From: Candidatus Omnitrophota bacterium
GTDB taxonomy: Bacteria; Omnitrophota; Gorgyraeia; Zapsychrales; JANLHA01
Assembly (NCBI GenBank): GCA_023247795.1
Contig: JAHFFT010000009.1
Span: 578 to 64,577 of the forward strand
DNA length: 64,000 bases
Direction of reading: 5' to 3'
Shown here piece by piece: positions 2,364 to 3,404 of this stretch. The notes under the pieces were generated by a model. The model made no database searches, was not told the DNA's origin, and saw only the letters and a list, made by a program, of their open reading frames with translations. The translations under genes were made by a program, and so were the position numbers. Positions within the stretch are counted from its first letter, which is position 1. Every line of letters starts with the position of its first letter.

Positions 2364-2397
2364 CAGATATCACTGGCTGTGAAGCCAGTGATATCTG
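2364..2397. repeat. Perfect 14-bp-stem hairpin with a 6-nt loop: cagatatcactggc-tgtgaa-gccagtgatatctg
   Basis: Read directly: the right arm is the exact reverse complement of the left arm. It sits in a non-coding stretch between ridA and the two-gene module. Confidence 0.8.
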
Positions 2398-2454
2398 ATT
2401 ACCTAACAAACAGATGATTTCCTATAAATGTTGGTTAACCGCTTTAAGTACAGA

Positions 2455-2507
2455 CTTGACAAAGGTTACCCAACAAGTTATATTTTAACGTATCTTGTTA
2501 GGTAACC
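2455..2507 (+). promoter_or_regulatory. Sigma70-like promoter (TTGACA-N17/18-TATATT) overlapped by an inverted-repeat operator-like site
   Basis: ttgaca is at 2455-2460 and tatatt at ~2479-2484. ggttacccaacaag (2464-2477) and cttgttaggtaacc (2494-2507) are inverted repeats with one mismatch. A third half-site-like ttacctaacaa sits at ~2399-2410. Confidence 0.55.
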
Positions 2508-2524
2508 TTAACCTGGGGAAGAAT

Positions 2525-2845
2525 ATGAACGGTGTCATAAAAGGGGTCCTAACCGAAGAGTTGAACAACTCCCTGAGAATGAAAAAGGAATATGAGGCCG
2601 CTTTAAAAAAGTTGCCAGCAGGGTGCATCGTTAAGAAAAAAATTAAAAATAATGAGTACTGTTATCTTGTCAAAAGAATGGGGGATAAACTCAAACATAT
2701 CTACAAAGGAAAATTGCCGGATGATGAGCTTAAAAAATATGAAGAAGCCAAAAAACTGAGAGCCAAATACCGGAACCTGTTGTCCCAATTAAAAAAGCAG
2801 ATTAAATTCCTCAAAGGGGCTTTGCGTGGAAAAGAAGCAATATGA
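2525..2845 (+). CDS. Hypothetical small basic, coiled-coil-rich protein. First gene of the two-gene module and putative antitoxin or regulator partner.
   Basis: ATG at 2525 is preceded by a ggggaag Shine-Dalgarno-like sequence. 106 aa, K/E-rich and predicted helical, with an RMGDKLKH (Rx6H) motif. Its stop overlaps the next gene by 20 nt. Confidence 0.5.
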   Translation: MNGVIKGVLTEELNNSLRMKKEYEAALKKLPAGCIVKKKIKNNEYCYLVKRMGDKLKHIYKGKLPDDELKKYEEAKKLRAKYRNLLSQLKKQIKFLKGALRGKEAI

Positions 2846-3359
2846 TCTTTGTCTGGAAGTCCTGCGGCGTTTTCACGAACACAAGTTATTATCCGAATTT
2901 ATCCTGATCGGTAGCTGGTGTATTGTCTTTTACGAAAAATATTTCTCTAGCCCGGATTACATCCGCCACATTTCGCTCATCACCCGTGACATTGACTTTC
3001 TGATAGACAGACCTCAGTGCGTCAAAGCAGAAGTGGACATTCCTGAATTGCTTAAAGACCTTGGTTTTATCGCCACTTTTATAGGACCGGAAGGATACAT
3101 GAAACTGGATCATCCCCGGTTGATCCTTGAATTCCTGACCCCCGAAAGAGGACGAGGAAGAGATGCTCCTCATCCTTTACCATCACTTCATGTCAACGCG
3201 ACAGCTTTAAGATTTCTTAATTTTTTATCTGAGAACACAATCAAGGTAAAGGTCAAAAATTTTACAATACAGTTGCCTCATCCAGCCAATTGCTATAAGG
3301 TAAAACATATGTTTTCTAGAAAAGCCGATGAACGTATACGACATTTTGGGGTATTTTGA
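2826..3359 (+). CDS. Nucleotidyltransferase-fold protein (GS...DxD, resembling AbiEii/DUF1814 or MNT family). Putative toxin or effector of a toxin-antitoxin/abortive-infection-like pair.
   Basis: LIGSWCIVFY...RHISLITRDIDFLIDRP carries hG[GS] and DxD ~25 aa apart, the pol-beta NTase signature. GTG start at 2826 is preceded by aggggc and overlaps the upstream gene. Confidence 0.5.
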   Translation: MEKKQYDLCLEVLRRFHEHKLLSEFILIGSWCIVFYEKYFSSPDYIRHISLITRDIDFLIDRPQCVKAEVDIPELLKDLGFIATFIGPEGYMKLDHPRLILEFLTPERGRGRDAPHPLPSLHVNATALRFLNFLSENTIKVKVKNFTIQLPHPANCYKVKHMFSRKADERIRHFGVF

Positions 3360-3404
3360 ACCGTAGGTTAGGCAAAACACACACGCTAAAATTCTTATAA
3401 TCAT

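Follow-up and report, generated by a model that had tools for sequence, protein, structure and literature searches.

We analysed a 64,000-nucleotide (nt) stretch of the genome of a Candidatus Omnitrophota bacterium (GCA_023247795.1, contig JAHFFT010000009.1, positions 578-64,577, forward strand), hereafter the window, in which two overlapping genes, denoted A and B, lie behind a promoter surrounded by inverted repeats. Gene A occupies positions 2525-2845 of the forward strand and encodes an intact protein of 106 amino acids (aa). The open reading frame (ORF) of gene B starts with GTG and runs on the same strand from 2826 to 3359 (177 aa), overlapping gene A by 20 nt. An earlier note on this DNA had drawn the two ORFs in the same way, and homologues uphold both start codons, since those of A are also 106 aa long and those of B begin M/VEKKQ. 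We found that positions 2397-3291 hold a single copy of a widespread, self-contained and probably autoregulated bicistronic module, and no second copy of A or B was detected in the window. It is close to certain that this copy is a truncated one. The copy is unlikely to be the working system for which the earlier note took it as a candidate, since the Lys and Asp motifs on which AbiEii and MenT1 depend are missing from it.

Gene A is preceded by a sigma-70-type promoter that matches the consensus at 11 of 12 positions. The -35 hexamer TTGACA (2456-2461, forward strand), which is conserved in related loci, and the -10 hexamer TATATT (2479-2484, forward strand) are separated by 17 nt, and a ribosome-binding site, GGGGAAG, is found at 2515-2521 of the same strand, where related loci carry GGAGG. 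The promoter is embedded in four TTACCyAACAA half-sites, spaced at intervals of about 30 bp and arranged as two palindromic operators. In the proximal operator, the forward half-site GGTTACCCAACAAG (2464-2477) sits between the two hexamers and the reverse half-site CTTGTTAGGTAACC (2494-2507, reverse strand) lies downstream of the -10 hexamer. These two arms are complementary at 13 of 14 positions, and at 89% of positions when they are extended to 19 nt. The distal operator is formed by the forward half-site GATTACCTAACAAAC (2397-2411), which has a counterpart near -110 in most related loci, and the reverse half-site ATGTTGGTTAACC (2428-2440, reverse strand), whose GGTTAA variant is shared by loci L017, L023, L028 and L036. 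The latter begins the canonical 30 nt past its forward partner. Exactly three copies of the 11-mer TTACCYAACAA are present in the 64 kb, all of them inside 2399-2505. The promoter and its overlapping 14-bp inverted repeat were thus described correctly before, with the spacer left at 17 or 18 nt. We rejected an RNA hairpin as the role of the proximal repeat, since transcription is expected to start downstream of its first arm, which falls between the two hexamers and hence would not be transcribed.

The layout of these elements was found to be conserved across phyla. In most related loci, half-sites near -110 (forward) and -80 (reverse) are followed in order by TTGACA, a second forward site near -51, TATAnT, a second reverse site near -21, GGAGG and ATG, and within each pair the start of the reverse site is 30 nt from that of its forward partner. 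The half-site core varied by lineage: Omnitrophota have CCyAACA, the Pirellulales and Planctomycetia loci CCATACA and a few others CCAAACA, and both arms of both operator pairs switch together. This is the pattern that selection on a dimeric DNA-binding protein would give, and it points to the half-sites as a protein operator. We propose that the inverted repeats act as an autoregulatory operator overlapping the -35 and -10 hexamers, with A as the predicted binder. The A residues that best track the operator class are mostly located within residues 34-58 of its beta-sheet and where helix 1 ends, an association that is confounded by shared ancestry and serves as a pointer only. The conserved, lineage-wise co-varying operator agrees with the architecture of an autorepressed toxin-antitoxin operon, as which the earlier note had read this region.

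That note had also placed a third half-site and a perfect hairpin further upstream. The third half-site exists (2397-2411) and is joined by a fourth (2428-2440). The hairpin is also real but it is not conserved. It occupies 2364-2397, assigned to neither strand, with a perfect 15-bp stem and a 4-nt loop, and spans the stop codon of an upstream 51-aa ORF remnant (2227-2382). It has no T-run, occurs nowhere else in the window and lies directly against the distal operator half-site. Neither of the closest homologous loci, L081 and L082, has a counterpart, and we therefore left the hairpin outside the module. It may represent an insulator, a terminator or the scar of a recombination event. A reading as an integron attC site was unsupported, the hairpin being unique in the window and not conserved elsewhere.

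A scan of one genome per species with an alignment of B returned 174 relatives, of which 80 loci were kept. These came from Omnitrophota, Planctomycetota, Elusimicrobia, Margulisiibacteriota, Saganbacteria, Zixibacteria, Chlamydiota, Nitrospirae and other groups. Gene A was located directly upstream of B on the same strand in all 73 loci with enough upstream sequence. The computed overlap was 20 nt in 70 of them and 23 nt in the other three, which are apparently shifted by one codon. The GTG start of B was also conserved (74 of 77 aligned loci); two of the exceptions are shifted by one codon and have GTG there, while locus L072 is ambiguous. Inside gene A, at 2813-2819 of the forward strand, we found an internal Shine-Dalgarno-like site for B, AAAGGGG, which reads AAGGAG in most homologues and lies 8 nt upstream of the B start. 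No third gene was conserved beside the pair in the related loci examined. The invariable pairing, together with the lack of a conserved third gene, indicates that A and B form a genuine, self-contained bicistronic module. A dedicated adjacent pair with a 20-nt overlap and a single upstream promoter, as found at these 73 loci, is the arrangement expected of a toxin and its antitoxin. The co-occurrence in other genomes, which the earlier note had named as a check, together with the conserved overlap, also bears out its view that the two genes are translationally coupled. A programmed +1 frameshift joining A and B, considered in view of the fused homologues described below, was judged unnecessary, given the conserved Shine-Dalgarno site and GTG start of B and the lack of a recognisable slippery site in the overlap.

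The module was found in variable positions, and more than one copy can occur per genome, as with L030 and L036 in one metagenome-assembled genome. Its neighbours in other genomes often include AbiEii, Fic, RhuM, HsdR, PemK, HicA and MNT genes, so toxin-antitoxin and defence genes do adjoin it, consistent with the defence-island-like setting suggested before. A phage-borne origin was rejected, as B had no match in 50,697 phage records and one distant relative in IMG/VR.

Protein B belongs to Pfam family PF12281 (NTP_transf_8), named 'GSU2403 family nucleotidyltransferase fold protein' by NCBI. The window copy scores 44.7 bits against a cut-off of 26.3 (E 2e-11) and covers positions 5-178 of the 218 in the profile, whereas full-length homologues (228-232 aa) cover positions 5-215 and reach E 2e-24. 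We collected 1314 homologues of B, and all 31 that were tested matched PF12281. The profile of the AbiEii and MenT family (PF08843, DUF1814) gave no match for B at E<=10, the PADLOC AbiEii model matched one of the 31 homologues (E 0.016), and a search of the B profile against the sequences of the PDB found nothing.

We then examined the fold on a full-length homologue (P0002) that is 86% identical to the window copy. The AlphaFold2 model (mean predicted local distance difference test score, pLDDT, 88.5) shows a nucleotidyltransferase (NTase) core followed by a five-helix C-terminal domain. The top ranks in Foldseek were ANT(2'')-Ia (E 1.5e-4) and MenT1, with LnuA also among the best. In the structural comparison the highest score was obtained with a fungal NTase-like protein (5uvd; 13.4), followed by the toxins MenT1 (11.8) and MenT3, also known as TglT (10.7), and then by ANT(2'') and the toxin MenT4 (10.1 each). 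The earlier note had expected a toxin-type NTase fold and suggested Foldseek as the check; the nearest solved structures do include MenT1, MenT3 and MenT4.

The residues invariant in the B family are G29-S30, T53-R54-D55-x-D57, E102, K160-L-x4-R166-R167 and K175-D176. The first two groups correspond to motifs I and II (hG[GS] and [ST]-R-D-x-D) and are present in the window copy, and G29-S30 with D55-x-D57 make up the polymerase-beta NTase signature that had been recognised from the start. In the AbiEii and MenT group, motif III, with its Lys (KLxAaxxR), and motif IV (+DxxD) are essential for toxicity. Motif III of the B family is K160-L-x5-R167 and motif IV consists of K175-D176 only, the second Asp not being conserved; both are gone from the window copy. 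The invariant T53-R54-D55-x-D57, K160 and D176 parallel T39, R40, D41, K137 and D152 of MenT1, residues which have been shown to matter (PMC11375011), as well as motifs I-IV of AbiEii (G49; R63, D67 and D69; K173 and R180; D192), mutation of which abolishes toxicity (PMC3985639).

The B gene of the window ends early. In the protein alignment it follows the family up to residue 155 (PHPAN) and then diverges. Similarity at the DNA level to L081 and L082, the closest loci, extends from about 2397 to 3291 and then stops abruptly. Likewise, in a tblastn search with P0241, a full-length homologue from the same 90% cluster, the match in the window comprised residues 1-155 only, and no remnant of the 3' part of B was found anywhere in the 64 kb. 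The gene B remnant therefore comprises codons 1-155 (2826-3291, forward strand), retaining G29-S30, T53-R54-D55-x-D57 and E102 of this MenT/AbiEii-like NTase, while 3292-3359 is an unrelated read-through tail of 22 codons and a stop. Positions 3292-3404 are the region upstream of miaB. A deletion or rearrangement beside miaB, with its junction at 3291/3292, has removed the 3' third of the gene, which the earlier note had taken as complete to 3359. About 75 residues were lost (codons 156 to approximately 229), including K160, R166/R167, K175-D176 and the C-terminal helical domain. With motifs III and IV and the helical domain missing, the enzyme of the window is very probably inactive. The promoter, all four half-sites, gene A and its ribosome-binding site are intact. 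This suggests that what remains is an orphan repressor or antitoxin, and that only the regulator half is likely to be still functional in this Omnitrophota genome.

We also scanned metagenome contigs with an alignment of A and retained 67 loci with enough downstream sequence. B was intact in 55 of these and broken or absent beside an intact A in the other 12. Five of the 12 defective loci have 3' truncations, whose breakpoints differ, and another is a near-duplicate of one of the truncated loci; one has a 5' deletion, one an in-frame deletion and two are frameshifted, and in the remaining two B is lost completely. The in-frame deletion affects the B homologue at L140:1012-1626, where it is internal and removes the strand with the conserved acidic LEFLxPE motif but leaves the remaining ORF open, which has the look of a precise disarming of the enzyme. 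Among the 73 loci selected through B, none lacked an intact A (Fisher's exact p = 8e-5 against the A-selected sample). Loss of B with retention of A is what one would predict for a B that does harm in the absence of A, and we counted it as support for B as the toxin and A as the antitoxin.

Protein A was found to have 432 close homologues from Omnitrophota and related metagenome-assembled genomes, nearly all exactly 106 aa long. Its AlphaFold2 model (pLDDT 81) shows a helical hairpin (helices 2-29 and 66-104) that carries a three-stranded beta-sheet (residues 34-62), and not simply the small coiled coil that had been assumed. Scans of A against Pfam, NCBIfam and PADLOC gave no significant match, apart from one homologue with a weak resemblance to Arm-DNA-bind_3 (E 0.016). 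Many A homologues, and some of the fused proteins described below, carry weak precomputed tags for DUF6788 (PF20586), but our own Pfam search listed none, even at E<=10. With B in PF12281/GSU2403 and these weak DUF6788 matches to A, the module is already catalogued as a sequence family and so is not, at that level, the undescribed variant it had been suspected to be. We predict that A is the operator-binding autorepressor and also the partner (antitoxin) of B.

Two known identities for A were rejected. A HEPN identity had been hinted at by an R-x6-H stretch, but its histidine, H58, is Y or F in nearly all homologues, the fold is mixed alpha/beta, and no HEPN family matched. As for AbiEi (COG5340), A has 106 aa in a helix-sheet-helix layout instead of an N-terminal winged helix-turn-helix (HTH) followed by a C-terminal domain of about 100-150 aa, and again no family matched, in line with the earlier impression that A does not resemble the classic AbiEi antitoxin. 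We also observed three matches to the A profile in which an A-like N-terminal domain is joined to something other than PF12281. In P0467 it is joined to an MNT-type minimal NTase (PF01909/PF18765), and in P0442 and P0495 to Peripla_BP_3 plus an AraC HTH. These could be chimeras that arose when B was deleted, or else the A domain may have real partners other than B.

A search of plasmids with B (tblastn) identified 315 records, mostly alphaproteobacterial, with single-chain GSU2403 proteins. These fused proteins have 339-358 aa, and PF12281 spans residues 100-311 (E 1e-70); their first 100 residues belong to no Pfam family. Aligned with A by hhalign, this N-terminal domain gave E 3.7e-5 across the sheet and into the first part of helix 2. 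The hidden Markov model (HMM) of A matched all 123 fused proteins at residues 23-96, and the HMM of the fused N-terminal domain in turn matched all 75 A proteins, at collinear positions and with E values down to 2.6e-8. As A is homologous to the fused N-terminal domain, the two genes of the window are a divided version of what is elsewhere one chain, and A is a detached domain of the single-chain family members and not a foreign partner. The fused genes in L091 (2060-2110), L092 (2040-2095) and L093 (2085-2120) have a perfect palindrome of their own just upstream, for example GGTTATACTGTTTTT/AAAAACAGTATAACC. The palindromes upstream of the fused plasmid genes are unrelated in sequence to the Omnitrophota operator.

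Among the characterized systems closest to the pair are the MenAT modules of the DUF1814 group in Mycobacterium tuberculosis, including MenA1-MenT1 (Rv0078B-Rv0078A), in which a small upstream partner is likewise followed by an NTase of about 200 aa with a C-terminal helical domain. MenT and B share T-R-D, a Lys about 100 residues further on and an Asp about 15 residues beyond that. However, B and MenT have no detectable similarity at the sequence level, B having neither a match to PF08843 nor a hit in the PDB profile search. The partners also differ: MenA1 is a helical protein of 68 aa without a DNA-binding domain (PMC10435456), whereas A has 106 aa, a beta-sheet and a conserved four-site operator. 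A single-chain fusion, moreover, distinguishes the A-B family from MenAT.

The type IV toxin-antitoxin and abortive-infection system AbiEi-AbiEii of Streptococcus agalactiae is, like A-B, bicistronic and overlapping, with the antitoxin first. The AbiE operon represses itself by way of inverted repeats located in its promoter, whose spacer is 17 bp (PMC3985639; PMC7319586). With respect to the AbiEii motifs, KLxxxxxR of B resembles motif III and its K-D resembles motif IV. However, A bears no relation to AbiEi, a winged-helix protein of COG5340 whose C-terminal domain is large, the genes overlap by 4 nt in AbiE and by 20 nt here, and the gap from G-S to D-x-D is 15 residues in AbiEii but 24 in B. 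AbiEii also belongs to PF08843 and B to PF12281, and no phage-defence phenotype is known for the A-B family. The name of PF12281 carries no function; the branch of the window has two genes, while the best-scoring members of the family are single chains with an N-terminal A-like domain. The order of small protein then NTase, which had been thought unusual, is the normal one in both AbiEi-AbiEii and MenA-MenT. MntA-HepT (MNT-HEPN, type VII) is similar to A-B in placing an NTase of the polymerase-beta superfamily in a two-gene module. There, however, a minimal NTase is the antitoxin and its partner is a HEPN RNase, whereas A-B combines a partner that is not HEPN with a larger, MenT-like NTase, and its pattern of decay points to the NTase as the harmful component.

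These comparisons suggest how an intact module may work. The sigma-70-type promoter, bracketed by the two palindromic operators, would drive gene A. B, of about 229 aa when intact, would be made by coupling through the 20-nt overlap from its own Shine-Dalgarno site and a weak GTG start, which may keep B at a low ratio to A. A would bind the operators and repress the operon, and would hold B inactive by binding it. Free B would be a growth-arresting NTase which, by analogy with MenT, may add nucleotides to the 3' ends of tRNAs. In other lineages both parts are joined in a single protein of 339 aa.

On balance we favour, with moderate confidence, the reading of A-B as a MenT/AbiE-like toxin-antitoxin or abortive-infection-type module. 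It is supported by the variable positions of the module, often beside toxin-antitoxin and defence genes, by its occurrence more than once per genome and by the asymmetry in decay. Several points weigh against it. In the literature searched, we found neither toxicity nor any other experimental characterization for a member of PF12281, and PADLOC and NCBIfam recognise neither A nor B. The antibiotic-modifying enzymes ANT(2'') and LnuA are structurally about as close to B as the MenT toxins are. A has no specific structural match, so its DNA binding is deduced from the operators only, and its identity of 65-86% across phyla is unusually high conservation for an antitoxin. The single-chain forms do not fit a simple labile-antitoxin model and would need neutralisation in cis. 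Part of the asymmetry in decay is also expected by chance, as B is twice as long as A and distal in the operon, although the complete absence of the reverse case, B without A, exceeds what the length of B would give.

A-B could instead be a DNA-bound enzyme or regulator, in two subunits or a single chain, with A as a DNA-binding or targeting domain. The NTase would then sense or consume a nucleotide, either to regulate the binding of DNA or to modify a target, be it nucleic acid or protein. Such a protein could serve defence or plasmid maintenance and need not be intrinsically toxic. The homology of A to the N-terminal domain of the single-chain members, the palindromes upstream of fused and split genes alike, the very high conservation of both A and B, and the fused form on the 315 alphaproteobacterial plasmids all speak for this possibility. 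We nevertheless consider it unlikely, because B has been inactivated repeatedly with A intact and never the reverse, because the nearest structures to B are tRNA-modifying toxins that share its T-R-D-x-D, Lys and Asp motifs, and because the universal weak GTG start is what one would expect if less B than A has to be made. The Foldseek matches to ANT(2'')-Ia (E 1.5e-4) and LnuA, along with a promoter under operator control, might suggest a small-molecule NTase that modifies an antibiotic or a metabolite, with A as its dedicated transcriptional repressor. This appears improbable. Resistance genes are seldom coupled by overlap, or fused, to their repressor, and the one-sided loss of B with retention of A would not be expected of them. 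The module is also embedded in toxin-antitoxin islands, and T-R-D-x-D, whose Thr is the phospho-acceptor in MenT1, and KLxxxxxR are typical of the DUF1814 toxin group.

We give least credence, and very little, to the opposite assignment of roles hinted at in the earlier note, in which B is the antitoxin NTase of an MNT-HEPN-like pair and A a HEPN-like or other toxin. The R-x6-H stretch in the A protein of the window and a possible, weak HEPN-like remnant just upstream (2227-2382) fit this assignment, but Y or F replaces H58 in nearly all homologues, A is mixed alpha/beta while HEPN is all-alpha and has no HEPN family match, and B decays while A persists alone, the opposite of what a toxic A would lead one to expect.

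The more specific form of the toxin-antitoxin reading, which we hold only tentatively, is that A-B and its fused relatives are an uncharacterised branch of MenT/AbiEii-like NTase toxin systems. The neutralising and autorepressing element would be a new fold that reads an operator of four half-sites, and the toxin would exist in two-gene forms and in single-chain forms neutralised in cis, abundant in Omnitrophota, Planctomycetota and alphaproteobacterial plasmids. The copy in the window would then be one of many disarmed toxins whose repressor has been kept.

The surroundings of the module in the window contain further gene fragments, as the earlier note had described. At the start, an ISL3-family transposase ORF (17-1251; PF01610) encodes 340 aa with HTH_Tnp_ISL3 and DDE domains, its usual N-terminal part apparently missing. 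Because its start is overlapped by another ORF in a different frame (17-289), it may be a frameshifted pseudogene. The N-terminal portion of a RhuM-family gene lies at 1489-1815, its approximately 75 residues corresponding to residues 8-83 of a 524-aa homologue (BLASTP E 6e-16). This fragment overlaps the start of an intact Rid/RutC-family deaminase gene (1796-2176). The ORF at 2227-2382, immediately before the module, encodes 51 aa (…RLRRRRHHFIYD…EEARSALETAKKLI…) and resembles the C-terminal piece of a HEPN-type protein. Its match to PADLOC PDC-M05B is weak (E 0.015) and it had no match in the PDB; it is probably another gene remnant. Downstream, the region of B is followed by the housekeeping genes miaB and nadA. 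The locus is thus a decayed remnant beside miaB, amid fragments of mobile elements, in which the regulator is intact and the enzyme probably dead, and gene B of the window would be better annotated as a truncated pseudogene than as a protein of 177 aa.

The sequence families were already catalogued and are functionally blank, whereas the pairing, the operator grammar, the universal GTG start, the relationship of split and fused forms and the asymmetry of decay were undescribed in the literature searched. Although the locus in the window is itself no longer a working system, the A-B family is a good candidate for experiments. Its exceptionally regular operator, which co-varies with the protein, makes it a clean model for protein-DNA co-evolution. 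If the toxin-antitoxin reading is true, A would be a new kind of antitoxin and repressor, and the family would offer a natural series of split and fused forms for comparing neutralisation in trans and in cis. With more than 1300 clusters in the split branch, more than 2700 in the fused branch and copies on 315 plasmids, PF12281 would, if proteins of the B type are toxins, be a large addition to the repertoire of NTase toxin-antitoxin and abortive-infection systems.

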